From IMG/VR virus record IMGVR_UViG_3300030019_000001: a stretch of 42,841 nucleotides of DNA, one strand, 5' to 3'. The stretch comes from a virus. Lineage: Duplodnaviria; Heunggongvirae; Uroviricota; Caudoviricetes. Under the pieces are notes generated by a model. The model searched no databases, was not told the DNA's origin, and saw only the letters and a list, made by a program, of their open reading frames with translations. A program made the translations under genes and the position numbers. Below, in pieces: positions 5,898 through 40,396 of this stretch; positions within the stretch are counted from its first letter, which is position 1, and each line of letters opens with the position of its first letter.

Positions 5898-6221
5898 ATG
5901 AAACACATCAAATCATTTGAAGAAAAAATAAATAAAATATCAATAGATGAATTAAAAAATCATGGAATATCAAAAGATTCACCATTTTTGATTAGTGATA
6001 ATGAAAAATTACCAAAAGATACTAAATTTAAAATTGGAGATCATGTTAAAATAAATACAAATAACAATGAATATATCTACAAAATAGAATATTATTGTAT
6101 TGAAACTAAAAAATATACTTGCTTCATAACAATAGACACATTTTCAAGACAATGGATATATGAAGATGAATTAGAATTGGTTCCAGATTATGAAATATCA
6201 TCAAAAAAATTCAACATATGA
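5898..6221 (+). CDS. Small protein, terminal-cassette family A (MKHIKSFEE ... KIGDHVKI ... SSKKFNI)
   Basis: N- and C-terminal cassette; the stop TGA overlaps the next ATG (AACATATGAAA). Confidence 0.6.
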   Translation: MKHIKSFEEKINKISIDELKNHGISKDSPFLISDNEKLPKDTKFKIGDHVKINTNNNEYIYKIEYYCIETKKYTCFITIDTFSRQWIYEDELELVPDYEISSKKFNI

Positions 6222-6586
6222 AATATATTAAGAAATATGAGAACATAGATGAACATGTTAATGCAGAAGGTAAATTTTGGGAAATAAATACAGATGAACC
6301 ATATTTTGAAATCTCATTAAATAAACTTGGTTTTGATGAAGAGTTAAAGGAAAAAATATATGGAATGAATAACTCCTACATAAAAAATAGTGGATTAGTT
6401 TATATTTATATTATTAAAACAAATTTATCATACTTAGGCACATCAGTAACATGGAGTCATGTTACTGATTTCATAAAAGATACTGCAATAGAAAACGGTA
6501 ACAAATATATGGGAAAAGTTGAAATAACCGAAGATGATATTAAAAAATGGAATCTAATTAAAAAGACACAAAAATTCAACTTATGA
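6218..6586 (+). CDS. Small protein, terminal-cassette family A (MKYIKKYEN ... KKTQKFNL)
   Basis: Same cassette; ATGA overlap on both sides. Confidence 0.6.
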   Translation: MKYIKKYENIDEHVNAEGKFWEINTDEPYFEISLNKLGFDEELKEKIYGMNNSYIKNSGLVYIYIIKTNLSYLGTSVTWSHVTDFIKDTAIENGNKYMGKVEITEDDIKKWNLIKKTQKFNL

Positions 6587-7999: not shown

Positions 8000-8887
8000 T
8001 TATTTTTTATTCATATGAAAACAAATCTCGTTTAACCAACCACTTTTATATGATTTAGAATACGCACTAATAGATTTCATATAAAATTCAGATCTAGTCT
8101 TATATTTTAATGCTTCTATTTGACATAATTCTTTTGTCCAATAACCATTTGGTTTTACTAATGGTGTCATATGCAAACATATTTCTTTTAACCATTTATT
8201 TTTTAATGAAATTGTATATGCTGATGCTGATTGTTTTTTAAATTCAACTTTTGTATTAAATTTATTTGCTTCTATTTGACATAATTCTTTTGTCCAATAT
8301 TTTTTACCACCTGTTCCTCCTGTTTTACACTTATTTAAAATTTTCCAATCATTATTTTTATATTTATTAACATAATCCTCTTCTAATATTTTTGATAAAT
8401 AAACATCAATATATTCACTTAATTTTTTAAATTTATAATTATTATTTTTTTGTATATGTTCATAAACTGAGCCTTTTCTTAAATGTTCATTAAATCGTCT
8501 ATCTAAATCACAAGTCAATCCAATATATGCATAGTTATCAGAAAATTCATAAACATAAATACATCTTTTATATAAATCACCCATACACTTCATATGTGAG
8601 CATATTTCATCTATCCATCCATATATTAATGATTTACCATAAATATAACTTGAATTTTTCCTAAATTCATTTCTACTATTAAACTTCAAAGATTCTTTTT
8701 GACAAAAATCTTTTGTCCAGATATATGATTTATTTTTTCTCATATGAGCACAAACATCAAATATCCAATTATTTCTAATTGAGATTCCATATACTTGTTT
8801 ACATTTTATCCTAAATTCTTTTTTAGTTTTATATTTTAATGCTTCTTCAGTGCATTTTTCAATAGTCCATATTTTTTTATCTATCAT
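8000..8887 (-). CDS. GIY-YIG family endonuclease (homing-endonuclease-like) with two N-terminal and two C-terminal ~43-aa W.(K/E).C..E(A/S)LK(Y/F)..R.EF.......Y.....W..EIC.HM repeats
   Basis: Core CIYVYEFSDNYAYIGLTCDLDRRFNEHL (GIY...YIG...R...E). Repeats WTIEKCTEEALKYKTKKEF..., WTKDFCQKESLKFNSRNEF..., WTKELCQIEANKFNTKVEF..., WTKELCQIEALKYKTRSEF... Confidence 0.8.
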   Translation of the reverse strand: MIDKKIWTIEKCTEEALKYKTKKEFRIKCKQVYGISIRNNWIFDVCAHMRKNKSYIWTKDFCQKESLKFNSRNEFRKNSSYIYGKSLIYGWIDEICSHMKCMGDLYKRCIYVYEFSDNYAYIGLTCDLDRRFNEHLRKGSVYEHIQKNNNYKFKKLSEYIDVYLSKILEEDYVNKYKNNDWKILNKCKTGGTGGKKYWTKELCQIEANKFNTKVEFKKQSASAYTISLKNKWLKEICLHMTPLVKPNGYWTKELCQIEALKYKTRSEFYMKSISAYSKSYKSGWLNEICFHMNKK

Positions 8888-8983: not shown

Positions 8984-9532
8984 ATGAAACACATCAAATC
9001 TATACATGAACATGGAATTAGAGATGAATACACAAAAATTGGTATTAAAAAATATTATACTGATAATAAAGAAACATATATTAATCCGCATGAAGATAAT
9101 ATCAAATTAGTATTGAATTGGTGTTTAAAAAAAATTAATATAACAAACTTTATTGATTTGTCATGTGGCAATGGAGAAATAACCAAATATTTATCTAAAA
9201 ATGGAATAATTGATGCAATTGGCACAGATCCATATTTTAATAATATTTATACAAAAAAAACAGGAAATGAATGTTTAAAACTTTCATTCGAGGATATAGC
9301 AATACATGGATTAAATTTACACAAACAAACAATTATCTGTTCGTATGCACTTCATCTATGCACCAACTCATATTTTAATCAGTTGATGTATAATTTATCA
9401 TTAAACTGTAAATATTTCATTTTAATATCACCAAGTAAATACCCAATCATCACAGAAGATTATTTTGAATTTATTGATGGAATAATTATCAATAGAACAC
9501 ATTGTAAAATATATAAAAGTAAAAATAATTAA
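8984..9532 (+). CDS. Putative class-I SAM-dependent methyltransferase-like protein
   Basis: Motif I-like IDLSCGNGEITKYL, then IIDAIGTDP and IICSYALH. N-terminus MKHIKSIHE. Identification rests on the motifs only. Confidence 0.4.
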   Translation: MKHIKSIHEHGIRDEYTKIGIKKYYTDNKETYINPHEDNIKLVLNWCLKKINITNFIDLSCGNGEITKYLSKNGIIDAIGTDPYFNNIYTKKTGNECLKLSFEDIAIHGLNLHKQTIICSYALHLCTNSYFNQLMYNLSLNCKYFILISPSKYPIITEDYFEFIDGIIINRTHCKIYKSKNN

Positions 9533-9601
9533 ACAATAACATTTTTTCTAAACAATTATAATAAAAATTCATATAATATTATAAAATAAAAATATAATAT
9601 A

Positions 9602-10594
9602 ATGGACTATAATAAGGATTATTATAAAGATCTAGGATTAAATAAAGATTCATCTGATGAAGAAATCAAAAAGAAATATCGAAAATTAGCATTAAAACAC
9701 CATCCAGATAAAAATCAAGGTGACAAAAATAGTGAGGAAAAATTCAAAATCATATCAGAAGCATATGAAGTATTATCTGACGATACAAAAAAGCAAGAAT
9801 ATGACACAAGAAGTCCTAATGGTAAATCATATTCATCATTCAATTCAAGTTTTTTTGGTGGTGGGCAAGACATATTCTCTCATTTCTTTGGTGAAAATAG
9901 TCCATTTGGTAATTTTTTTAGATCAGAAGAATTCACTGAGCAATTAGATATCAGTATAAATGTCAATATAGATTTTAAGCAAATATACAAAAATGATAAA
10001 ATTACAATAAAATATAAGAAATTTATAAATTGTGATGAATGCGATGGCACAGGATTTGATAAATCTGGAGAATCATATGATTGTGTTGTATGTGATGGTA
10101 CAGGAATAAATAACAACAGAGATTGTGAATATTGTCAAGGAACTGGAAAAATACACAGCGGAAAATGTAAAAAATGTAATGGAGAAAAAGTAATCATAAA
10201 AGAAACAGAACTACTTTTACAAAATATTTCAGAAATTAGGGGATCAAACAGAAATGTTCAATATGGTTATGGTAGTCAATCAAAATACTACAAAGATAAA
10301 GTAGGTAGCCTAATTTTAAATATAAACAGTATAAATAACAGTAAATGTAACATTATAAATAATTATGATTTGATATCAACATTAGACATACACTTTCAAG
10401 ATGCTATTGATGGAAACAAAATAAATTATACACACGTTGATGATTCAAAATTAGAAATAAAATTACCAAATAAAACTAAAAATAACGACACAATAAAAAT
10501 AAAAGAAAAAGGTTTATTGAAGCAGGATGGTAAACGTGCAGATTTATATTTAAAAATAAATATAATCATAGACTATGATAAATTAAATATATAA
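9602..10594 (+). CDS. dnaJ: DnaJ/Hsp40 type-I co-chaperone (J domain, G/F region, four CxxCxGxG zinc-finger repeats, C-terminal domain)
   Basis: [33 protein letters not shown] (HPD), a FGG/FF-rich linker, then [32 protein letters not shown]. Confidence 0.85.
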
Positions 10595-10613
10595 ATAAAA
10601 ACAATTACATAAT

Positions 10614-10898
10614 ATGAAAAGAAATGATTTTGAAGTAGCAGCGGGCTTATTATATAGAATTAATAATACAGAAAAAACAATTTTTGAATTACAGGCAATC
10701 AACAAATGCAATGAATTTAAAATAATAGGAATAAATTCAATCAATGGTTTCAGAGTTGGAGATGTTGAACTAAACACAGGTGATATATCAACTGAAGTTT
10801 TCTCTCAAGATATTCTTGAATATTTCATAAATACTTTAAATTTGGAACTAAACGAATTAAGAGAAAATTTTGATAAGTTATTTTCAAACGAAGAATAA
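10614..10898 (+). CDS. Hypothetical protein (94 aa)
   Basis: ORF with an ATG; it ends immediately before the large inverted repeat. Confidence 0.45.
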   Translation: MKRNDFEVAAGLLYRINNTEKTIFELQAINKCNEFKIIGINSINGFRVGDVELNTGDISTEVFSQDILEYFINTLNLELNELRENFDKLFSNEE

Positions 10899-10903
10899 TA
10901 TTT

Positions 10904-10956
10904 AATATAAGCCATATGACTTATATTAACACAATATAAGTCATATGGCTTATATT
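10904..10956. terminator. Perfect inverted repeat with 24-nt arms AATATAAGCCATATGACTTATATT / AATATAAGTCATATGGCTTATATT around an AACAC loop, exactly between the convergent stops at about 10898 and about 10960
   Basis: Read directly; each arm is itself a near-palindrome centred on CATATG, and AACAC...GTGTT flank the second arm. It is likely a bidirectional 3'-end or terminator hairpin. Confidence 0.65.
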
Positions 10957-10959
10957 GTG

Positions 10960-11448
10960 TTAATTTTCTTTTTCATTATCAAATATTTCTTGTAATTTAA
11001 GTTTACGTACAATTCTTTTAGAATCAGATAATATTTCATCTTTTGATTTATAACAAATAATATTATTCAAATCAACATATAATCTATCACAGCATATTGA
11101 ATGTCTACGATATGAACGATTATCATAAGGTATATAATCATCATAATACATTGGTTTACATATTATATAATTAAGATCAAATTTAAGTAAATATCGATAT
11201 TTAGGTTTGATTTTTGTTATTATTTCAGAATAAATATCATTCCAATCTTCACCTATTTTAGAATTTATAAATTCTTCTAAAGGTTTAAAATTATAATTGT
11301 GATATCTATTGTAATATATGCAATTTATTGATTGATGAGTAGGCAAATCTGAAAACAAATCAATATTATTATTACGTCTTGTTTTTGTGTATTGTTTATC
11401 TATACTTGTATTTCTACATTTTCTATATAAAAATTTATCTTTAAGCAT
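10960..11448 (-). CDS. Hypothetical protein (162 aa, Cys/Tyr-rich)
   Basis: ORF with an ATG. Confidence 0.45.
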   Translation of the reverse strand: MLKDKFLYRKCRNTSIDKQYTKTRRNNNIDLFSDLPTHQSINCIYYNRYHNYNFKPLEEFINSKIGEDWNDIYSEIITKIKPKYRYLLKFDLNYIICKPMYYDDYIPYDNRSYRRHSICCDRLYVDLNNIICYKSKDEILSDSKRIVRKLKLQEIFDNEKEN

Positions 11449-14721: not shown

Positions 14722-14749
14722 AAAACCAAAACAATTAAGTTTTGGTTTT
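14722..14749. terminator. Perfect 11-bp-stem hairpin AAAACCAAAAC-aattaa-GTTTTGGTTTT followed by a T-run, between the convergent stops (about 14718 and about 14756)
   Basis: Read directly. Confidence 0.6.
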
Positions 14750-28081: not shown

Positions 28082-28429
28082 ATGAAATATTTAAAAAATT
28101 TTGAAAATGAATTAACCACTGAATATAAAGTAGGTGATTATGTATCAATTAACTATGATACAAAATCTAACACATTAACAAAGTTGAAGGATTTTGTGAA
28201 TAATTCGATAGGAAAAATAATGTTTATTGATGATAAAAGTATGATTATTCAATATGTTAATATTCCAGATAAAATAAAACATTTTTTTTCTGATAAAAAT
28301 GTTGGAAAAGATAAAATAAAAAATTCTGTATTTTTTTGGAATAAAAATAATACAATAAAAAGATTAGCAACAGATGATGAGATAATAGAATATGAAGCAA
28401 TTAAAAATACAAACAAATTTAACATATGA
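28082..28429 (+). CDS. Small protein, terminal-cassette family A (MKYLKNFENELTTEYKVGDYVSI ... KNTNKFNI)
   Basis: Cassette termini; close paralog of 28426-28767. Confidence 0.6.
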   Translation: MKYLKNFENELTTEYKVGDYVSINYDTKSNTLTKLKDFVNNSIGKIMFIDDKSMIIQYVNIPDKIKHFFSDKNVGKDKIKNSVFFWNKNNTIKRLATDDEIIEYEAIKNTNKFNI

Positions 28430-28767
28430 AGCACTTAAGATTATTTGAAAGCCAACTAAAGCCTAAATATAAAGTAGGAGATTATGTTCATTTAGATATG
28501 GAGCCAGATTTTACTTATGATGATTGCTTAGGACAAATACTTAAAATAGATAAAAACGGATTCATAAACGAACCTGAAGAAACAGATTCAAATAAAAAAC
28601 ATGATAATTATATTAACACATTAAATCTTTACCCATATAAAGTTAAAATATTGGATGGTAAATTCGATGCTGAAGAAGGCTTAATAGATAGATATATGAA
28701 AAAAGATGAAATAGAATATTTTGAGTATTTATTAAAGAATAAAGATACTAAAAAATTTAACATATGA
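28426..28767 (+). CDS. Small protein, terminal-cassette family A (MKHLRLFESQLKPKYKVGDYVHL ... KDTKKFNI)
   Basis: Cassette termini; ATGA overlaps on both sides. Confidence 0.6.
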   Translation: MKHLRLFESQLKPKYKVGDYVHLDMEPDFTYDDCLGQILKIDKNGFINEPEETDSNKKHDNYINTLNLYPYKVKILDGKFDAEEGLIDRYMKKDEIEYFEYLLKNKDTKKFNI

Positions 28768-29021
28768 GCAAATTAATAAATGATATACATAAAATGTTGG
28801 GTTATCTTAAAATAATACAACAATATAATTATTTTTCACAATTAGGAAATGAAGATGATATCGACTATTTAAAAGATAAAGTTGATAATTTATATTATAT
28901 AGATGACACAGATAAACTTATAAAAGATTTTGAATGGTGTGCAGATATGGTAAATCAACTTTATGATCAAGTTGATTCAGAATTTAAAAAGAGAATGTTA
29001 ATCGAAGAACAACTATACTAA
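28764..29021 (+). CDS. Small acidic protein (85 aa; MSKLINDIHK...)
   Basis: ORF starting at the AACATATGA junction; its stop is inside the hairpin. Confidence 0.45.
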   Translation: MSKLINDIHKMLGYLKIIQQYNYFSQLGNEDDIDYLKDKVDNLYYIDDTDKLIKDFEWCADMVNQLYDQVDSEFKKRMLIEEQLY

Positions 29022-29047
29022 AAAAGTCAGATTTAATCTGACTTTTT
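29021..29047. terminator. Perfect 12-bp-stem hairpin AAAAAGTCAGAT-tta-ATCTGACTTTTT bridging the two convergent stop codons (29019-29021 and 29050-29052)
   Basis: Read directly; A-tract and T-tract symmetric arms. Confidence 0.65.
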
Positions 29048-30455: not shown

Positions 30456-30893
30456 TTATAAGTTGAATTTATTTGAGATTCTTGTTAAATTCATTTCATT
30501 GATTACTTTTTTCTGTTTTTCTGTAATATTACCATAAATAGTAAATGATGATTTATTGTCAACATGGTAAATATAATTATCATTTGTAGTTAATATTAAT
30601 GATAATAGAACAAATATTCTTTTCTTGTGTTGTAAAGTGCCTTGATATCCAGTCGTACACTCTGTTATGGTGTTGATTCTACCTTTAACTATTTGAGGTA
30701 CATCTATAAAAATATTTTTTTCTTTATCATAACAATTCTTACAATTAAATTCAACTAATGTATCAACTATCAACAAATTACTAAGAAATTTTTTAATTTT
30801 CGTGTAACTACCAGAATAGTAATTTAACAAATCATTTAGTATGAATGTTGTTTCGGTTTCTGTATTTTCAAATATTTTGAAATTTATAATCAT
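30456..30893 (-). CDS. Terminal-cassette group B protein (MIINFKIFENTE ... EFNCKNCYDKEKN ... TIYGNITEKQKKVINEMNLTRISNKFNL)
   Basis: Clear paralog of 31308-31727 (same N-terminus, CxxC, TIYGNI and C-terminus). Confidence 0.6.
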   Translation of the reverse strand: MIINFKIFENTETETTFILNDLLNYYSGSYTKIKKFLSNLLIVDTLVEFNCKNCYDKEKNIFIDVPQIVKGRINTITECTTGYQGTLQHKKRIFVLLSLILTTNDNYIYHVDNKSSFTIYGNITEKQKKVINEMNLTRISNKFNL

Positions 30894-30894
30894 A

Positions 30895-31311
30895 TTAATT
30901 AATTTTTTTCCTTAAATAATTAAAAACAATTTCAAAAAATATCAGTTTAATTGAAAATGCCAACATAACAAACCAAATAGATGTATTCAATGTGATTATA
31001 ACAGATGCAAGAATCATAGTTATTTCAGATATAAACCAAAATAAATGCCATGCATCAGTAAACACAACAAAAATAGTAGTACTTCCTATGAATTTTTCTC
31101 CATTTAATGGATTGGCATTTTTATATTTATTGAGAGACCCCAATCCTTGTTCCCAAAATTTTGGATTTAATTTATATTTTAAATATAATCTTGACTTGTA
31201 AAATAAATTAGGAGAAGATGATATATCAGTTATAGATTTAGATATACCAGATATTAATAATAAAAAAAGTATTATTAAAATGTTTAAAATTGCTGAAGTA
31301 GTTAGTATCAT
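30895..31311 (-). CDS. Predicted multi-pass membrane protein (138 aa) embedded between two group B paralogs
   Basis: Hydrophobic segments MILTTSAILNILIILFLLLISGI and ITMILASVIITLNTSIWFVMLAFSIKLIFF; its start overlaps the KFNI-TGA of the upstream gene. Confidence 0.5.
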   Translation of the reverse strand: MILTTSAILNILIILFLLLISGISKSITDISSSPNLFYKSRLYLKYKLNPKFWEQGLGSLNKYKNANPLNGEKFIGSTTIFVVFTDAWHLFWFISEITMILASVIITLNTSIWFVMLAFSIKLIFFEIVFNYLRKKIN

Positions 31312-31727
31312 ATGTTAAATTTATTTGCTTGTCTTTTTATATTAATATCATTTATTATTTTTTTTATATCACCAGGAATATTTCCATAAATTGTCATCTG
31401 AGAATTTGTGTCTACTATATGACTAAATTTTATTCTTTTCAATCTCAATGTTAAGTATATATGTTTAAGATCATAATTAAATCCATAACTTCTACCGTTT
31501 ATAATTCCTTTATGATGTTTATTTGAATGTATAAAATTTGTAACACCATTTATATCATCTGTACATTTATTACAATTAAATTCAACAATGTTATTGTTGA
31601 AATTAAATAATTTGAAAATGAAATTTCGTATTGAATCTTCATGACTATCAAAGTAATCTACAATATCATCCAATACCAATGTGACTTTATCATCTGAGTT
31701 CTCGAATAATTTGAATTCTGTTATCAT
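31308..31727 (-). CDS. Terminal-cassette group B protein (MITEFKLFENSDD ... EFNCNKCTDDING ... TIYGNIPGDIKKIINDINIKRQANKFNI)
   Basis: Paralog of 30456-30893. Confidence 0.6.
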   Translation of the reverse strand: MITEFKLFENSDDKVTLVLDDIVDYFDSHEDSIRNFIFKLFNFNNNIVEFNCNKCTDDINGVTNFIHSNKHHKGIINGRSYGFNYDLKHIYLTLRLKRIKFSHIVDTNSQMTIYGNIPGDIKKIINDINIKRQANKFNI

Positions 31728-31741
31728 GCTGATATATATAA

Positions 31742-32920
31742 TTATTTGAATTTGTTTTTTAATACTTGATATTGAGATTTAACAGAATAATAAGACCTAT
31801 TTAATTTTTTAGCACAACATTTTATTCCTATATGATAATTTTCAATTAAAAAAATAATATCATCTTCTGGCCATGAATTTTTTCTTTTTTTTGCTATCAT
31901 ATGAGAGCATATATCTTTATACCATTCATTTTTAATTGCAGATGCTGCTGCACTACTATTGTTTTTTAGAAAATCATCTTTATAAATATATTTTGATGCC
32001 TCGTATTTACATTTTTCATATGTCCAAAATTTAGCAGATCCTCCTAATGTACTTTTTTTGTTAGTATTTAATAATTTCCAATTATTATTTTTGTATTCAT
32101 TCATATAATATTCTTCCAATTTCTGTGCTTCTGATTTATTAATATAGTCAGTTAATTGTATCAATTTATATTTATTGCTTGCTTTTTGTAAATGTTTGTA
32201 AATTGGACCTTTTTTAATATGCTCCTGCTCTCTAATTTTTATATTATATGTCAATCCAATATATGCACAATTATCATCAAATTCAAAAGCATAAATACAT
32301 CTAAATTCTTTACTACCAATTTTTATCATATGTGAACAGATATCATTAGATATATTATTTACATTTGAAAAATTATAAGCACCTCTATATTTTTTTTGAA
32401 AATCATTTCTACTATTACACTTTAATGCTTCTTCTTTGCATTTATCATAATTCCAATAATTATTAACATAAGTCATATGATTACAAATTTTTTCTATCCA
32501 TTTTTTTGAAATAGATATTCTATATGCACTAGCATCATTTTTTCTAAAATCAGTTCTGGTTAAATATTTTAATGCTACTTCTTGACATTTTTCTATTGTC
32601 CAGTAATTATTAGGTTTATGACTTAAATTCATATGAGAACAAATACTATTTAGCCAATTATTTTTTAATGACTTATTATATGCAGTTGCTTCATTTTTTT
32701 GAAAATCTGATATAGAATTATAATTTAATGCTGCTTCTTGACATTTATTGTGTGTCCAATGTCCTGGAGTATTAATTTTATATTTCATATGTGAACAAAC
32801 AATATTTAAATATTTATTTTTTACACAAGCATTATATGCTAAATTATCTAATTTTTTAAAATCACTTCTATATTCATATTTTAATGCTGCTTTTTGACAT
32901 ATTTCTAATGTCCATTTCAT
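31742..32920 (-). CDS. GIY-YIG family endonuclease (homing-endonuclease-like) with four N-terminal and one C-terminal ~43-aa W..E.C..(A/E)AL.Y..R.DF.K...AY.....W...IC.HM repeats and a C-terminal helix-turn-helix-like tail
   Basis: Core FRCIYAFEFDDNCAYIGLTYNIKIREQEHIKKG. Repeats WTLEICQKAALKYEYRSDF..., WTHNKCQEAALNYNSISDF..., WTIEKCQEVALKYLTRTDF..., WNYDKCKEEALKCNSRNDF..., WTYEKCKYEASKYIYKDDF.... Tail NSWPEDDIIFLIENYHIGIKCCAKKLNRSYYSVKSQY. Confidence 0.8.
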   Translation of the reverse strand: MKWTLEICQKAALKYEYRSDFKKLDNLAYNACVKNKYLNIVCSHMKYKINTPGHWTHNKCQEAALNYNSISDFQKNEATAYNKSLKNNWLNSICSHMNLSHKPNNYWTIEKCQEVALKYLTRTDFRKNDASAYRISISKKWIEKICNHMTYVNNYWNYDKCKEEALKCNSRNDFQKKYRGAYNFSNVNNISNDICSHMIKIGSKEFRCIYAFEFDDNCAYIGLTYNIKIREQEHIKKGPIYKHLQKASNKYKLIQLTDYINKSEAQKLEEYYMNEYKNNNWKLLNTNKKSTLGGSAKFWTYEKCKYEASKYIYKDDFLKNNSSAAASAIKNEWYKDICSHMIAKKRKNSWPEDDIIFLIENYHIGIKCCAKKLNRSYYSVKSQYQVLKNKFK

Positions 32921-33089: not shown

Positions 33090-36000
33090 ATGAAAATTGC
33101 TCACTTAGCTGATGTTCACATTAGAAACCTTGAAAGACATGAAGAATATAATGATATTTTTCAAAAAATAATAAAAAAATTACGCAAAATTACACCAGAT
33201 AGAATTGTTATTGTTGGTGATTTATTTGAAAGTTATATTGAAATTTCAAATGAAGCTGAAATTATAGCTGGAAATTTCTTAAATGAATTATCAAAAATTG
33301 CTAAAGTTATAATAGTTCGTGGTAATCATGATATTCGTAAGAAAAATTTAAATAGAATCGACAGCATAGAAACTGTAGTTAAACTAATGAATAATCCAAA
33401 TGTTACTTATTATGATAAAACTGGATTTTATGATGATAAGCAAGATAACAATTTTGTTTGGGTTGTTTATGAACACTCAGATAAAGACAACGATCCATGG
33501 AAAAATATTAAAAAATATGATGGTAAAATATATATTGGGTTATTTCATGACCCAGTTTTAAATGTAACATCAAATACTGGTAAAGTTTTTAATGATGCAA
33601 ACAAGTACAAAAATATGAATTATTTTAATAATAATGATTTTGTGCTAATAGGTGATATCCACAAGCGTCAGTATTTAAGAAATGATAAATCTGCTGCATA
33701 TTGTGGCTCAACTATACAACAATCATATGGTGAAACAATTGAAAATCATGGTTTTTTATTATGGGATATAAAATCACCATCAGATTTTGATGTCACTGAA
33801 TATGATATTGACAATGAACACACTTTCATAAATCTTTATATTGATGAATCATCAGATTATGACAATTTAAATTTGTCTGCTGATAAAATTGGAACAGATA
33901 CTGAAATTAAAGTTCATTGGAAAGAATATTCATCAATTATAAATACTGTTAATGAAAAGAAAATAAGAGATTATATTAAAAATAAATTTAGCACAACTAA
34001 AGTTATTTTTGAAAAAGTTTATTTATACACAGATATATTATCATCAAAAATGCTATCAGAATCAATTGATTTGACTGATACTGAAACACAGAAAGAAATA
34101 TTTAATGAATATTTAGAAGAGCAAAAATACAAAAAAGATGATATTGAATCTATTCTTAAAATTGATGATATAATAAATAGTAGAGTTCAATTGGTAGAAT
34201 GCTTAAAAAATACTGAATGGAGTATTGATAAATTCTGGTTTAGTAATTTTAAATCTTATGGAGATGATAATGTTATAGATTGGGCTGATATTAATGGAAT
34301 TGTACAAATTCATGGAGAAAATCAGGAAGGTAAAACAACTATTTTAGATGCACTTACTTATATTCTTTATGGTAAGACTACGACAACATTAAGTCCTGAA
34401 AAATTTGGAGATTCAAGATATATAAATAACAAAAGAGATTTAGATTATGTTAATGGTGGTGCAATTATTAATTCAAATGGTAATAAATTCGTTATTCAGA
34501 GAAAGACAGAAAGAGTTTGGAATAAGAATCACACGGCATTAACAAGCTGTCCTACATCATTGGATTTTTATAAAAGCGAGAATATTTGTGAAGAAAATAA
34601 ATTAACAGATGAAATTAAAGCTAAGACTCAAAAAGAATTGGACTCTATTTTAGGAGATTTGAAAGATTTTATTAGATTGTCATTCACTAATGCTGATAAT
34701 TTAAATGATTTATTATCAGAAAATAGAAGTGTATTTATGGATAACATCATCAGAGATGCTGGTTATGATATTTTTGAAATTAAATTGAATGAATTTAAAG
34801 AATATAAAAAAGAATTAGTAGAAGAAAAATTAATAGTAAATATTCAAGATTCTGAATCTCGTGTGAAAGAATTGAATACTGAAATTATTGATATTAAAGA
34901 TATTATTGATACTAATAATTCTGATATTGAGAAGCATGAAAAAGAATTATCTGATTATAATACAGATAGAGATAATTTAAATAAAAAATTAAATAATATT
35001 GATTTATCAATGTTAACTTTTAATGAAGATTTAAATTTGAATACCATCAACAATTATGAATCTAAAATTGAAGAATCTAAAATTCAAAGCACAATTTTAG
35101 ATAGAGACATTGATAAATTACCTACTGAATTCGATTCATCTAAACTTGATGAATATAAAATTAAATTGAAGCAAACGAACTTGAAAATTTCTGAACGAAA
35201 AGATGAAATTTCAAATTTGAAAACTTCATTATTAGAATCTGATAATAAAATAGATAAAGTTAATATTAAAATTGATGAATTAAAACAATCTGAAATTAGA
35301 AAAATATCATCAAAAATAAATGCAAATGATTTACAAATTGAAGTTATTAAAAATAATAAATCTAATATCATAAAGGATGAAATAAAAAAAATAACATCAG
35401 AAATTCAAGAATTAGAATTAAATTTAAAAGAATTATCATCTAATATAAAATTATTACAAAAAGATGGAGTTAACGCTAAAAATTCAAATGAGGAATTAGA
35501 TAAAGAAATAGAAACATTCAAAAATTCAAAATCTTGTCCTAGCTGTGGTAGAGATTATGATAAAAATGATCCAAAATATTCAGAACACTTAGCTCATTTA
35601 GAAGATAAAATTAAAAGTCTTGAAATTAAAAAAGAACCAAATTCTTTGATAATTAAAGATTGTATATTAAAGTATAAAGATTTAAAAAATGAATCTATTG
35701 AATGTAATACAAATATTCTTAATTTGGAAGACATGAAAAAAAGGTTAATTCAAGGAGAATACCCTGATGATATATTATCTAAATTGAAAGAAATTGGTAG
35801 CAGTAAGAAGTTGACTCAAGACAATTTAGATTTAAATAAATTAATAGAAAAAATTGAGAATAACATATTTGATGAATCTGAAACATTAAATGAAAATATT
35901 GAGAAAGGGAAAGAACTAATAAAAAACATAGAAAAAGGCAAATTAGATACATCAATTGTAATAAAAAATATTGAGTCTGAATTGAAAAATTTTAATGTTG

Positions 36001-36845
36001 AAGGTATAGATGATGATATTTCAATTGAGGAAACTAAGAAAGATAATTTTGAGTTAAGAAACAGAAAAATGTCAAATAGAGATAATATTATTTTATCAAT
36101 CGAAAATTTTAATTTTAAAATAAAAGAACTAAAATTAGAAATAGAAAAATATCAAGAATATAAAGTTAAAATAGATGAAAATAAAATTATTCAATTATCA
36201 ATAGATGATGTGGATAATAATATTAAAGTCGTTAAAGAACAAATAAAAAATTTATCACAAATAAATATAGAAATGGAAAAAAATATTATACTCAAAGAAA
36301 ATGATATTTTTATAATTTCAACTAAGATAAAAAAATATTTAAAACAAAAGAAAAAAGATGAGTTATTAAAGGAGTATCAAAAATGTATTAGTCGTGATGG
36401 ATTACCTACTTTTTTATTGAAAAAGTCTATTCATTTAATTAATAAAGAATTGAATGAATTATTAATAAATGTTAATTTTACATTATTTTTTGATGATAAT
36501 TTAAATTTAAGGCTTAGTGCAGATGATAGGCTAGATTCCAGTCAAAATGCAATTGAAAGTTCTGGAAAAGAAAGAACATTTTGTGCTCTTGCATTGAAGA
36601 TAGCATTACGACAAATAAATGTCAAATCAAAATCTACGTTTATTGTATTGGATGAAATTATGGGTAAATTAATTGATGGTAAAAAAACAAAATCTGTTCA
36701 GCAATTTTTAGAATTTATTGATGAGTTGAAAAATAAAGTAAATAAAATTGTAATTATTGAACAGGTGCATAGTATAAATTTTGATGCATCAATTGAAGTT
36801 GATAAAGACGAAGAATTAGTTTCTCACTTAGAATTAGTTTATTAA
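33090..36845 (+). CDS. Single-chain Mre11/SbcD nuclease fused to a Rad50/SbcC ABC-ATPase with a coiled coil and CxxC zinc hook (1251 aa)
   Basis: Phosphoesterase motifs HLADVH, VGDLFE, RGNHD, GLFHD, IGDIHKRQ in the first ~230 aa. Walker A GENQEGKTTILDALTYILYGKT. Long K/E/N-rich coiled coil with zinc hook SKSCPSCGRDY. Signature-like SSGKERTFCALAL, Walker B FIVLDEIMG, H-loop VIIIEQVHS. Confidence 0.8.
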   Translation: MKIAHLADVHIRNLERHEEYNDIFQKIIKKLRKITPDRIVIVGDLFESYIEISNEAEIIAGNFLNELSKIAKVIIVRGNHDIRKKNLNRIDSIETVVKLMNNPNVTYYDKTGFYDDKQDNNFVWVVYEHSDKDNDPWKNIKKYDGKIYIGLFHDPVLNVTSNTGKVFNDANKYKNMNYFNNNDFVLIGDIHKRQYLRNDKSAAYCGSTIQQSYGETIENHGFLLWDIKSPSDFDVTEYDIDNEHTFINLYIDESSDYDNLNLSADKIGTDTEIKVHWKEYSSIINTVNEKKIRDYIKNKFSTTKVIFEKVYLYTDILSSKMLSESIDLTDTETQKEIFNEYLEEQKYKKDDIESILKIDDIINSRVQLVECLKNTEWSIDKFWFSNFKSYGDDNVIDWADINGIVQIHGENQEGKTTILDALTYILYGKTTTTLSPEKFGDSRYINNKRDLDYVNGGAIINSNGNKFVIQRKTERVWNKNHTALTSCPTSLDFYKSENICEENKLTDEIKAKTQKELDSILGDLKDFIRLSFTNADNLNDLLSENRSVFMDNIIRDAGYDIFEIKLNEFKEYKKELVEEKLIVNIQDSESRVKELNTEIIDIKDIIDTNNSDIEKHEKELSDYNTDRDNLNKKLNNIDLSMLTFNEDLNLNTINNYESKIEESKIQSTILDRDIDKLPTEFDSSKLDEYKIKLKQTNLKISERKDEISNLKTSLLESDNKIDKVNIKIDELKQSEIRKISSKINANDLQIEVIKNNKSNIIKDEIKKITSEIQELELNLKELSSNIKLLQKDGVNAKNSNEELDKEIETFKNSKSCPSCGRDYDKNDPKYSEHLAHLEDKIKSLEIKKEPNSLIIKDCILKYKDLKNESIECNTNILNLEDMKKRLIQGEYPDDILSKLKEIGSSKKLTQDNLDLNKLIEKIENNIFDESETLNENIEKGKELIKNIEKGKLDTSIVIKNIESELKNFNVEGIDDDISIEETKKDNFELRNRKMSNRDNIILSIENFNFKIKELKLEIEKYQEYKVKIDENKIIQLSIDDVDNNIKVVKEQIKNLSQINIEMEKNIILKENDIFIISTKIKKYLKQKKKDELLKEYQKCISRDGLPTFLLKKSIHLINKELNELLINVNFTLFFDDNLNLRLSADDRLDSSQNAIESSGKERTFCALALKIALRQINVKSKSTFIVLDEIMGKLIDGKKTKSVQQFLEFIDELKNKVNKIVIIEQVHSINFDASIEVDKDEELVSHLELVY

Positions 36846-36849
36846 AAAC

Positions 36850-36883
36850 AAAAAAAGAGTAGATTTTTATCTGCTCTTTTTTT
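36850..36883. terminator. Hairpin AAAAAAAGAGTAGAT-tttt-ATCTGCTCTTTTTTT (15-bp stem with one G:U pair) between the convergent stops at 36843-36845 and 36885-36887
   Basis: Read directly; it looks like a classic intrinsic terminator with a trailing T-run and is also symmetric. Confidence 0.65.
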
Positions 36884-37711: not shown

Positions 37712-39352
37712 TTATAAATGGATTAGTTGTTGTACCCCTGTTATAGTAGGTATACTATTTACATTTAATGCAATTTCAATAATTCCATCAATTTCTAATA
37801 ATGATGTATTTAAATGAGTTGAATCTCCACCTATATTACTTAATTTGATTTCATCTATAAAATGTCCCCATCTTGGACGATCTGTTGTTCCTGTTACAGA
37901 AATTGTTTGTGGTATAGTCAATTCAGAATTGAATGTTTGTCCTGATTGGTTATAACCTTTACTGTAATTTACATAATAGTTTAATGCAAATGTTCCTGAA
38001 ATTGCTGTACCATTATGACTCCAATGTGTGTGTAAATATATATCAGAGTTTGGTAAATAATCATGTGGCATATGATATGTAATATTATCTATCTTATCAT
38101 TAACTTGAAATGTATAATTAAGTATATTAGTTCCTCTTAACGGTGATAATGAAGGAGCAGTAGATCCACCAACCCTTGGTATTATCTGACCGATTAAATC
38201 TTTATATCCAAATGTCGGTGTTGTATTGTCTATCATTATACCTGTTCCTGACAACTTTGGTAATATTAAATTACCATTTAAATTTAATAATGAATTATGA
38301 TATGTTAATCCACTTTCAACATTTACATTTGGAGATGATACATTTAATGTAAGTAGTCCATAATTCGTTGTACCATTTAATGATACTGTTCCTGAACTTC
38401 CTGATGTTCCATTGGTTCCTGAACTTCCTGATGTTCCATTGGTTCCTGAACTTCCTGACGTTCCATTCGTTCCTGATGTTCCATTTGTGCCTGAACTTCC
38501 TGATGTTCCATTTGTTCCTGACGTTCCATTTGTTCCTGACGTTCCATTCGTTCCTGATGTTCCATTTGTGCCTGAACTTCCTGATGTTCCATTTGTTCCT
38601 GATGTTCCATTTGTTCCTGACGTTCCATTTGTTCCTGACGTTCCATTCGTTCCTGATGTTCCATCTGTTCCTGAACTTCCTGATGTTCCATTCGTTCCTG
38701 ATGTTCCATCTATTCCTGATGTTCCATCTATTCCTGATGTTCCATCTATTCCTGATGTTCCATCTATTCCTGATGTTCCATCTGTTCCTGAACTTCCCGA
38801 TGTTCCATCTGTTCCTGAAATTCCTGATGTTCCATCTATTCCTGATGTTCCATCTATTCCTGAAGGACCAGGAGCACCATTTAATGATACATTCCAAAAA
38901 TTATATGTTCCGCTACCAATAGATGAAGTAATATTTGAAAATATTTCACCTGTTATTTTATTATATGATAATATATAATTTATCATTAAATTTGATGAGT
39001 CATGTGTTATTATAATATCTTGTCCTGTAGATAATGATAAATTAGGCTCAACAAAAAATGATATTGTACCTCCTGTTGATATTTCTAATGTATTATTCGA
39101 AAATGTAGTATATTTATCTCCACTTAATCCATTTGTTCCTGAACTTCCATTTGTTCCTGAACTTCCATTTGTACCTGATGTTCCATCTGTTCCTGATGTT
39201 CCATCTGTTCCTGAACTTCCATTTGTTCCTGAACTTCCATTTGTTCCTGATGTGTGAGAAATGCCAGATAGAGATTCTAAATATGAAAAATTACCGTCCA
39301 TTTCGGTTATAGTTAATCTTTCTCCTTTTTGTTGTCTTAAAATTAAACTCAT
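37712..39352 (-). CDS. Collagen-like triple-helix repeat protein (two G-X-Y blocks, about 45 and about 150 residues, of GT(S/N/D)G(S/T)SGT type) with a C-terminal globular domain of about 230 aa
   Basis: GTNGSSGTDGTSGTDGTSGTNGSSGTNG... and GPSGIDGTSGIDGTSGISGTDGTSGSSGTDG... runs. Repeats at the DNA level generate four spurious overlapping ORFs. Confidence 0.8.
   Translation of the reverse strand: MSLILRQQKGERLTITEMDGNFSYLESLSGISHTSGTNGSSGTNGSSGTDGTSGTDGTSGTNGSSGTNGSSGTNGLSGDKYTTFSNNTLEISTGGTISFFVEPNLSLSTGQDIIITHDSSNLMINYILSYNKITGEIFSNITSSIGSGTYNFWNVSLNGAPGPSGIDGTSGIDGTSGISGTDGTSGSSGTDGTSGIDGTSGIDGTSGIDGTSGIDGTSGTNGTSGSSGTDGTSGTNGTSGTNGTSGTNGTSGTNGTSGSSGTNGTSGTNGTSGTNGTSGTNGTSGSSGTNGTSGTNGTSGSSGTNGTSGSSGTNGTSGSSGTVSLNGTTNYGLLTLNVSSPNVNVESGLTYHNSLLNLNGNLILPKLSGTGIMIDNTTPTFGYKDLIGQIIPRVGGSTAPSLSPLRGTNILNYTFQVNDKIDNITYHMPHDYLPNSDIYLHTHWSHNGTAISGTFALNYYVNYSKGYNQSGQTFNSELTIPQTISVTGTTDRPRWGHFIDEIKLSNIGGDSTHLNTSLLEIDGIIEIALNVNSIPTITGVQQLIHL
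38400..38880. repeat. Coding 9/18-bp (G-X-Y) tandem repeats of the collagen-like gene (the major block; a minor block is at about 39121-39255)
   Basis: ggaacatca/ggaacgtca/ggaacatcagg units repeated. Confidence 0.8.
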
Positions 39353-40102: not shown

Positions 40103-40396
40103 ATGGAGAAAATAAAAACAAAATCATTGGAAGACATTTTATCAGAAAATGGTATTTCTAGTAATACTGAAGAAGAGTATAAATTAATATTGTGGAATGA
40201 TGATGTGAATTCATTCGAATGGGTAATAACTTGTCTAATGGCATATTTAAAATTTTCATTTGAAAGAGGTCAAGCATCAGCTTATAATGTTCATCTTATA
40301 GGTAAAGATATTATTAAAACTGGCTCAAAAGAATCATTGGAGCCTTACAAAAAATTATTAGAAGAGAAAGGATTATCTCTCACAATAGAACAATAA
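40103..40396 (+). CDS. clpS: ClpS-like ATP-dependent Clp protease adaptor (N-degron recognition)
   Basis: YKLILWNDDVNSFEWVITCLMAYLKFSFERGQASAYNVHLIGKDIIKTGSKESLEPYKKLLEEKGLSL aligns with the ClpS core [24 protein letters not shown]...A.QLML.VH..GKA. Confidence 0.8.
   Translation: MEKIKTKSLEDILSENGISSNTEEEYKLILWNDDVNSFEWVITCLMAYLKFSFERGQASAYNVHLIGKDIIKTGSKESLEPYKKLLEEKGLSLTIEQ

Follow-up and report, generated by a model that had tools for sequence, protein, structure and literature searches.

A 53-nt inverted repeat with self-palindromic arms as a probable two-way terminator between converging operons of a huge phage

Two converging operons of a huge phage meet at a 53-nt inverted repeat, both arms of which are themselves near-perfect palindromes. 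Its anatomy and context suggest that the repeat is probably an enlarged, lineage-specific transcription terminator common to both operons. We favor this reading because strong hairpins mark most convergent junctions in the same DNA but none of the co-oriented ones with short gaps, and the corresponding slot in related phages holds a terminator. A first reading of the letters alone had also implied a terminator hairpin at a convergent junction, and this part was borne out by the survey of junctions and by the terminators that relatives carry in the same slot. The extra roles that it considered gained no support.

Anatomy and setting of the repeat

The window, the whole stretch of 42,841 nt analysed here, has a GC content of 24% and comes from a huge phage with contigs of 405-711 kb that is related to phages of Bacteroidota. 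Contigs as long as 405 and 711 kb encode exactly the proteins that flank the repeat. The largest protein of the window (1417 aa) aligned over 96% of its length with a protein of a 735-kb uncultured phage, and in part with those of 634-642-kb huge phages, Lak phages of Prevotella, as well as Tenacibaculum and Chryseobacterium jumbo phages. The host phylum is therefore probably Bacteroidota. Shine-Dalgarno-like motifs were nearly absent (1 of 56 genes, against a background of 11%) and leaders were A-rich, in line with the translation system of a Bacteroidota-type host. Genes are packed tightly into units with ATGA overlaps, and several gave strong PHROG matches. No near-identical phage was found in GenBank, where a search at low stringency matched the DnaJ gene only. 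The whole window had no Rfam match at gathering thresholds, and it contained no tRNAs.

The GC content of 24%, the collagen repeats and the frequent strand switches had raised the idea of a giant virus. In Mimivirus, whose genome has about 25% GC, intergenic AT-rich palindromes are likewise common to convergent genes, and by the ‘hairpin rule’ they mark polyadenylation sites. A giant eukaryotic virus was ruled out by the Bacteroidota huge-phage relatives, the PHROG matches and the bacterial-type ribosomal protein S21 encoded in relatives. A polyadenylation signal of the hairpin-rule type was ruled out by the ATGA-overlapped operons, which lack co-oriented hairpins.

The window encodes DnaJ (9602-10594), a ClpS-like adaptor (40103-40396, plus strand) and, after one small gene, an 842-aa ClpA/ClpB-type double-AAA+ protein whose gene starts at about 40681 (plus strand) and runs past the window end (counterpart region at 9706-12812 of contig L047); this is a notable chaperone and protease set. 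A 1251-aa protein (33090-36845, plus strand) joins an SbcD/Mre11-like phosphoesterase to an SbcC/Rad50-like ATPase, the type of nuclease that processes hairpins and palindromes, and a match to a RuvC-like resolvase lies at 25391-26143. Two GIY-YIG proteins (8000-8887 and 31742-32920, both minus strand; both phrog_20046, E about 1e-60) are possibly homing-endonuclease-like paralogs. A tail-fibre-like protein with collagen repeats (37712-39352, minus strand) has 546 aa, against 516 aa in L047 (7405-8955), a 405-kb contig otherwise near-identical to the window, which indicates variation in repeat number between populations. The motif AAWTTYAAYWTATG occurs six times (6207-6220, 6572-6585, 28071-28084, 28415-28428, 28753-28766 and, on the minus strand, 31309-31322) where 0.26 would be expected; every time, it lies at a start codon that directly adjoins the stop before it. 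It reflects the common C-terminus (...KKFNI/L followed by the stop) of small, partly paralogous tandem proteins, of which the genes at 28082, 28426 and 6583, and those at 30456 and 31308, are related to each other.

The features at and around the repeat are as follows.

10614-10898, plus strand: 94-aa gene, function not assigned, 72-78% identity in relatives
10889-10903, minus strand: tail for minus-strand transcripts, AAAUAUUAUUCUUCG, 3ʹ of the hairpin, overlapping the stop codon of the plus-strand gene
10902-10929, minus strand: alternative 28-nt palindrome, TTAA-(arm A core)-TTAA
10904-10927: arm A, AATATAAGCCATATGACTTATATT, self-palindromic at 11/12 positions around the centre CATATG; its one imperfect pair, read on the plus strand, is a C.A mismatch
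10925-10964, plus strand: alternative 40-nt palindrome, ATTAACAC-(arm B)-GTGTTAAT, with 20-nt arms matching at 19/20
10928-10932: loop AACAC of the long hairpin, and also the part that extends arm B leftward into the 40-nt palindrome
10933-10956: arm B, AATATAAGTCATATGGCTTATATT, the exact reverse complement of arm A, self-palindromic at 11/12 positions
10960-11448, minus strand: 162-aa gene, function not assigned, the last gene of the minus-strand unit 13923-10960
10965-10974, plus strand: T-run TTTCTTTTTC, 3ʹ of the hairpin, within the last codons (EKE) of the minus-strand gene

The 94-aa gene closes a plus-strand unit (8984-10898) of a methyltransferase-like gene, DnaJ and itself. The proteins of the two flanking genes had no family matches in Pfam, PHROGs or NCBIfam.

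Most of the structure described in the sequence-only reading was confirmed. The arms are complementary at 24/24 positions around AACAC, each arm is self-palindromic at 11 of 12 positions around CATATG, and AACAC together with GTGTT (10957-10961) does flank the second arm, extending it into the 40-nt palindrome. The statement that the repeat fills the gap between the stop codons exactly needed correction. These codons lie at 10896-10898 (plus-strand gene) and 10960-10962 (minus-strand gene), and the repeat takes 53 of the 61 nt between them (10899-10959), leaving TATTT on its left and GTG on its right. The 40-nt palindrome takes in the minus-strand stop codon.

Each unit has the core form ATATAAG[C/T]-CATATG-[G/A]CTTATAT. 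In arm B the single imperfection is T.G on the plus strand, a G.U wobble in RNA, and by symmetry the first-transcribed unit has the C.A mismatch and the second the G.U wobble on either strand. There are three centres of symmetry, spaced by 14.5 nt. A 29-nt direct repeat was also reported by the repeat-finding tool because two mirror symmetries imply a translation of 29 nt; therefore, only two of the three symmetries are independent.

The 53-nt repeat is not explained by chance. In 30 dinucleotide shuffles of the window, the longest perfect stem was 9-14 bp, against the 24 bp observed, and the probability that a 24-mer of the same composition is self-complementary at 11/12 positions or better was 2.7e-5. 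The repeat and both flanks were identical in 12 contigs from 12 independent JGI and ENA metagenome assemblies, and no polymorphism of the repeat was detected across them. The repeat is thus a genuine genomic feature and not an assembly artefact. Because all 12 copies are identical, a covariation test of the new hairpin is impossible.

Folding and termination on both strands

RNA folding gave -37.9 kcal/mol (z -12.7) for the plus strand and -33.7 kcal/mol (z -9.4) for the minus strand, showing a stable stem-loop in the nascent RNA of both, while DNA folding gave -22.1 kcal/mol for each strand. The proposal that the repeat folds either as one long or as two short hairpins was right in that both states are real, but they are far from equal. 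In plus-strand RNA the long hairpin with its extensions reached -37.7 kcal/mol, against -21.6 kcal/mol for the best sum of two hairpins; in minus-strand RNA the values were -32.9 and -22.1 kcal/mol. The long hairpin (-32 to -38 kcal/mol) is thus favored over the two-hairpin state (-22 kcal/mol) by about 10-16 kcal/mol. When the growing transcript was folded stepwise, the long hairpin took over once about half of the second arm was out, and the two short hairpins are transient at most.

The two sides of the repeat differ. On the plus strand, the long stem is lengthened by pairing of UAAUAU with GUGUUA and reaches the T-run TTTCTTTTTC. The alternative palindrome 10925-10964 forms an 18-pair hairpin in plus-strand RNA (-20.9 kcal/mol, the value included in the two-hairpin sum above) with the T-run directly 3ʹ. 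On the minus strand, 10902-10929 forms a G.U-containing hairpin of -10.4 kcal/mol, followed by AUAUUAUUCUUCG. The minus-strand tail starts with 10 nt that are all A/U, with 4-5 U among the first 8-9, and is a poor U-tract.

To place the repeat among its neighbors, a non-overlapping set of ORFs was used and every gene junction of the window was folded. Co-oriented junctions with short gaps or 4-nt overlaps gave about 0 to -6 kcal/mol, which is essentially no hairpin. A strong hairpin was found at most convergent junctions, with -12 to -24 kcal/mol at the others and -38/-34 kcal/mol at the repeat. Five other convergent junctions (1711-1748, 14722-14749, 18164-18197, 29021-29047 and about 36853-36883) have the classic bidirectional layout of an A-run, a 10-17 bp stem, a loop of 3-4 nt and a T-run. 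The repeat forms the longest and most stable hairpin of the window and has no symmetric A-run and T-run. The earlier claim that it is much longer than the other terminator hairpins held, since the perfect stems next in length are 19 bp (1711-1748), 15 bp (18164-18197), 13 bp (29021-29047) and 11 bp (14722-14749).

A consensus terminator scan of the first 20 kb called 9 terminator-like sites against 2.6 expected. The repeat was called three times as a plus-strand terminator, once as 10925-10964 followed by TTTCTTTTTC, and no minus-strand terminator was called there. The repeat has a U-rich tract directly 3ʹ of its stem on the plus strand, and it stands after the last gene of a unit, whereas co-oriented junctions with short gaps have essentially no such hairpins.

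Termination would then proceed differently in the two directions. Transcripts of the DnaJ operon would form the 24-bp hairpin extended by UAAUAU/GUGUUA, or the hairpin of 10925-10964, in either case with RNA polymerase standing on UUUCUUUUUC, the canonical arrangement for intrinsic termination, and plus-strand transcripts would end intrinsically at about 10964-10975. Transcripts of the minus strand would form the same hairpin of 24-25 bp, followed by the U-poor tail of A/U only. Release in this direction would probably depend more on the very stable stem, and on the weak all-A/U hybrid, possibly helped by head-on collisions of polymerases. We speculate that the extra stem length compensates for the T-tract lost on the minus side.

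Collision-assisted bidirectional terminators of E. coli were reportedly described by Ju et al. in 2019. In such terminators, convergent genes overlap in their 3ʹ region, and a hairpin there pauses polymerases and gives a defined stop, with no need for a canonical U-tract; the hairpin positions the collisions and termination even without classical U-tracts (Wang et al., bioRxiv 10.1101/2022.10.23.513370). The repeat resembles them in its hairpin and position, but they were shown for E. coli RNA polymerase only, and the plus side of the repeat has the look of a canonical intrinsic terminator. Constraint is stronger on terminators that serve two convergent genes (PMC5381666). With intrinsic bidirectional terminators in general, the repeat shares a stable stem-loop between two stop codons that is usable on both strands and a plus-strand T-run, and the classical order of A-tract, stem and T-tract occupies the same slot in relatives and other convergent junctions. 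It differs in that the A-tract/T-tract symmetry has been lost, leaving the U-poor minus tail, and in that the palindromic arms give two extra folds. A perfect stem of 24 bp, well beyond the 10-19 bp elsewhere in the genome, also counts against a plain terminator, as does the poor U-tract of the minus strand, where the scan made no call.

This stem length is the ground for considering RNase III. It is unlikely that the repeat is a processing or stability element for this enzyme, besides or instead of a terminator. In that case, cutting of the 24-bp duplex, or of the duplex between convergent 3ʹ ends, would strip the transcripts of both operons of their protective 3ʹ hairpin and determine how long they last. 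Bacterial RNase III cleaves efficiently at about 20-22 bp. The repeat offers a perfect duplex of 24-25 bp on either strand, beyond the roughly two turns (20 bp or more) of uninterrupted dsRNA that make a substrate, whereas the other terminators of the window have only 10-19 bp; in addition, if transcripts of both strands ended past the hairpin, they would share a complementary stretch of more than 53 nt. However, no gene for RNase III was recognised in the window, and special processing is apparently not required, because a stem of 16 bp suffices in the corresponding slot of relatives. From the letters, an RNase III site would be compatible with the 24-bp stem and would not exclude termination. 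The sib/tI retroregulator of phage lambda and the RNase III sites of T7 are the systems for comparison. They too have a 3ʹ hairpin of RNase III-substrate length that overlaps a terminator and has alternative folds. In lambda, however, the cleavable structure exists only on read-through transcripts, whereas terminated transcripts of the repeat would already hold both arms.

The same junction in related phages

Homologs of the 162-aa gene had 43-74% identity, and a terminator holds the orthologous position, or lies soon after it, in all the relatives examined but one. In the relatives of 64-74% identity, the gene is 5-10 codons longer and ends inside the terminator hairpin. The homologs at 64% (L025), 68% (L026 and L037) and 74% (L036) end with ...EKE[S/N]QS[S/Y]D within a 16-bp hairpin of the A-tract/T-tract type, GAAAAAGAAA[G/A]TCAATC-TT[A/C]T-GATTGA[C/T]TTTCTTTTT. 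In this hairpin 16/16 pairs are kept, and one pair is changed on both sides from G-C to A-T; with three distinct sequences, this single compensatory change is not significant, being reached in 176 of 500 shuffles. L038 and L040 (49% identity) have different terminators of a hairpin plus a T-run at the gene end, and L027-L029 (45%) have one about 110 nt downstream of the gene. In L030 (43%), the exception, no terminator was evident.

In the window, the 162-aa gene stops at least 5 codons sooner than in relatives, with ...EKEN before the stop codon. The A-rich left arm of the ancestral hairpin still codes for protein, and read on the other strand it gives the T-run 10965-10974. In the alignment, the old stem, loop, T-tract and spacer, about 45 nt together, give way to 64 nt in the window (10899-10962), and homology resumes in both coding flanks, including the 94-aa gene. 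No target-site duplication around the repeat was visible. The alignment indicates that the junction was remodelled in place, rather than receiving an insertion with target duplications. The enlarged repeat appears to be a lineage-specific replacement, since, set against the relatives examined, the window lineage alone has swapped the hairpin. Its closest distinct relative (L036, 74%) already has the simple hairpin, and sample 3300028864 holds both lineages.

A gene for bacterial-type ribosomal protein S21 lies between the convergent genes in L037 (2184-2378) and L040 (3004-3201), adjoining the conserved terminator hairpin, and is absent from the junction in the window and L025, which marks the junction as a hotspot of gene gain and loss. 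The contig of L036 (Logan contig SRR30681671_2061483) ends 4 nt past the stop codon, in the right arm of the hairpin, probably as an assembly break at the inverted repeat.

The relatives also bear on a function of the repeat as DNA. Extrusion as a cruciform in replication, packaging or resolution, at an origin, a pac site or a telomere-resolvase-like target, is extremely improbable. A perfect 24-bp repeat with a 5-nt spacer in DNA of 24% GC is predicted to extrude easily (-22.1 kcal/mol per strand), and the phage encodes the SbcCD-like nuclease and the RuvC-like resolvase. On the other side, relatives are without the repeat, contigs continue through it with none ending there, no replication, terminase or protelomerase genes adjoin it, and GC skew follows the gene strand and shows no change of its own at 10.9 kb. 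A replication origin or terminus was likewise rejected as a candidate, as the skew merely tracks the gene strand.

Copy number and the origin of the nested symmetry

The sequence-only reading had suggested looking for other copies of the 24-mer in the genome. With up to 3 mismatches it occurred in the 42.8-kb window at this locus only, and with up to 2 mismatches the half-site matched this locus and two weak chance sites. In about 230 kb of phage loci, up to 5 mismatches returned only the same junction; these loci add 7.8 kb of the source genome, of which ~50 kb of 405-711 kb was covered in all. IMG/VR contained no match to the 24-mer, and the 18-mer core had four unrelated single matches there, at chance level.

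The 22-mer core had five matches in bacterial genomes, one in an Anaerolineales MAG and four that make up one Cytophagales palindrome family. In the four Cytophagales contigs it appears as ATATAAGCCATATGGCTTATAT, a perfect palindrome with conserved flanks. These belong to an element of about 55 nt near contig ends, GCATTGCCnnCAACrTyyyG-ATATAAGCCATATGGCTTATAT-CyCyTTATT, at 1676-1697 in L031, 1042-1063 in L034, 421-442 in L035 (Chryseosolibacter indicus) and 613-634 in L032 (a Roseivirgaceae MAG). The L031 copy runs across the stop codon of a gene for a 373-aa tyrosine recombinase of the Xer/integron-integrase-like kind; that of L032 follows a superoxide dismutase gene at a distance of 8 nt. The Cytophagales element is possibly a REP-like element or a recurring recombination site. 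The match of its 22-bp core to the phage arms is probably a coincidence, because the likeness does not extend past the palindrome, and a search of the phage loci found no recombinase.

These searches weigh on the suggestion that the repeat binds a protein or recombines, with the 24-mer palindromes as sites of a dimeric protein or as core sites of a tyrosine recombinase with 8-bp arms, 29 bp apart. Near-perfect palindromic units are the usual form of dimer sites, and the core palindrome occurs in Cytophagales, once by the Xer/integron-integrase-like gene, while the likely host phylum is also Bacteroidota. Inverted arms around a centre of 6-8 bp, as in recombinase core sites, are present as well, but this is a weak sign that any palindrome would give. 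We nevertheless regard such a site as very unlikely. The motif is single-copy in the window and the roughly 230 kb of loci even at up to 5 mismatches and was not found in IMG/VR. When the recombinase of L031 was used as a tblastn query, neither the window nor any of the phage loci had a match below E = 1, no recombinase families were found among neighboring proteins, and no alternative junction from inversion or excision was seen, with identical flanks in the junction-spanning contigs among the 12 assemblies. In a palindrome of 22 bp just 11 positions are independent, and a chance match among the many palindromes of 596 Gb is plausible.

As to binding alone, the repeat stands between two stop codons rather than at a promoter, and 29 bp from centre to centre (about 2.8 helical turns) would place the sites on different faces of the helix. 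Both flanking genes are kept in relatives without the motif, which makes it unlikely that the repeat serves them as an operator or target. The flanking proteins were also rejected as DNA-binding partners, having no Pfam, PHROGs or NCBIfam matches and being encoded in the motif-less relatives. The additional role as a protein binding or recombination site, raised in the first reading, thus found no support in a single-copy motif with no recombinase and no rearranged junctions.

A related idea makes the triple symmetry itself functional, as a bistable RNA/DNA module. The short hairpins would terminate in each direction, and refolding into the 24-bp form would create a site for RNase III or for a protein or recombinase. 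On each strand, the promoter-distal unit would be the G.U-containing short hairpin beside its own tail, and the protein or recombinase site would be common to the Cytophagales palindrome family near the integron-integrase-like gene. If true, termination of the two convergent operons would be coupled to transcript decay or to a host factor. We consider such a module quite unlikely.

A miniature mobile element similar to REPIN or BIME, an inverted REP-like doublet inserted in the terminator slot with its transposase elsewhere, is highly improbable. REPINs are about twice as long as the 53 nt of the repeat, which counts against it. Their topology is otherwise the same (PMC3337134, PMC3116915): two imperfect palindromes in inverted order with a short spacer, foldable as one long or two short hairpins, and two inverted palindromic units with a spacer, together forming a hairpin, are indeed present here. 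REPs also occur in 3ʹUTRs and between convergent genes, and can be terminators or stabilisers (bioRxiv 10.64898/2026.03.23.713779). The presence of the repeat in one lineage, with co-occurring relatives lacking it, agrees with such an origin. However, a genome with REPs or REPINs has tens to hundreds of them, together with a cognate RAYT transposase, whereas the repeat was single-copy in the sequence searched, so that multiple copies were not found in the ~50 kb of source genome, and the shorter core had only the four unrelated chance-level matches in IMG/VR. No transposase was matched among about 40 of the roughly 60 window proteins compared with family libraries. The lack of a target-site duplication also speaks against it, as sequence was replaced and not added.

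The nested symmetry of the repeat probably reflects how it was made. Arm A is the reverse complement of arm B even at the two positions that break the symmetry. An inverted copy is favored because a direct duplication would have made A identical to B. The pattern is probably the mutational footprint of a reverse-complement copy made by template switching during replication. A pre-existing imperfect palindrome, for example 10925-10964, would have been copied in reverse complement beside itself. Such a switch would make the perfect long stem in a single event, and a second function would not be required.

Template switching can generate perfect stems in one event (Monttinen and Loytynoja 2022, PMC8794818). 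The repeat resembles the hairpins formed by this route, also known from quasipalindrome correction, in having arms that are exact reverse complements, symmetry-breaking positions included, and in being a multi-base replacement confined to one lineage. It differs in that the ancestral single-unit state was not recovered; no intermediate form was found among the homologs, and for this reason the template-switch origin stays a reconstruction.

No new class of element is indicated by these results, which point to ordinary biology in an unusual shape. The repeat would be a clean natural example of how one terminator gives way to another in the genome of an uncultivated huge phage, and a test case for stem length against U-tract quality in very AT-rich systems of the Bacteroidota type. 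Its internal symmetry records its probable making, and illustrates a template-switch route to long perfect stems in phage genomes.
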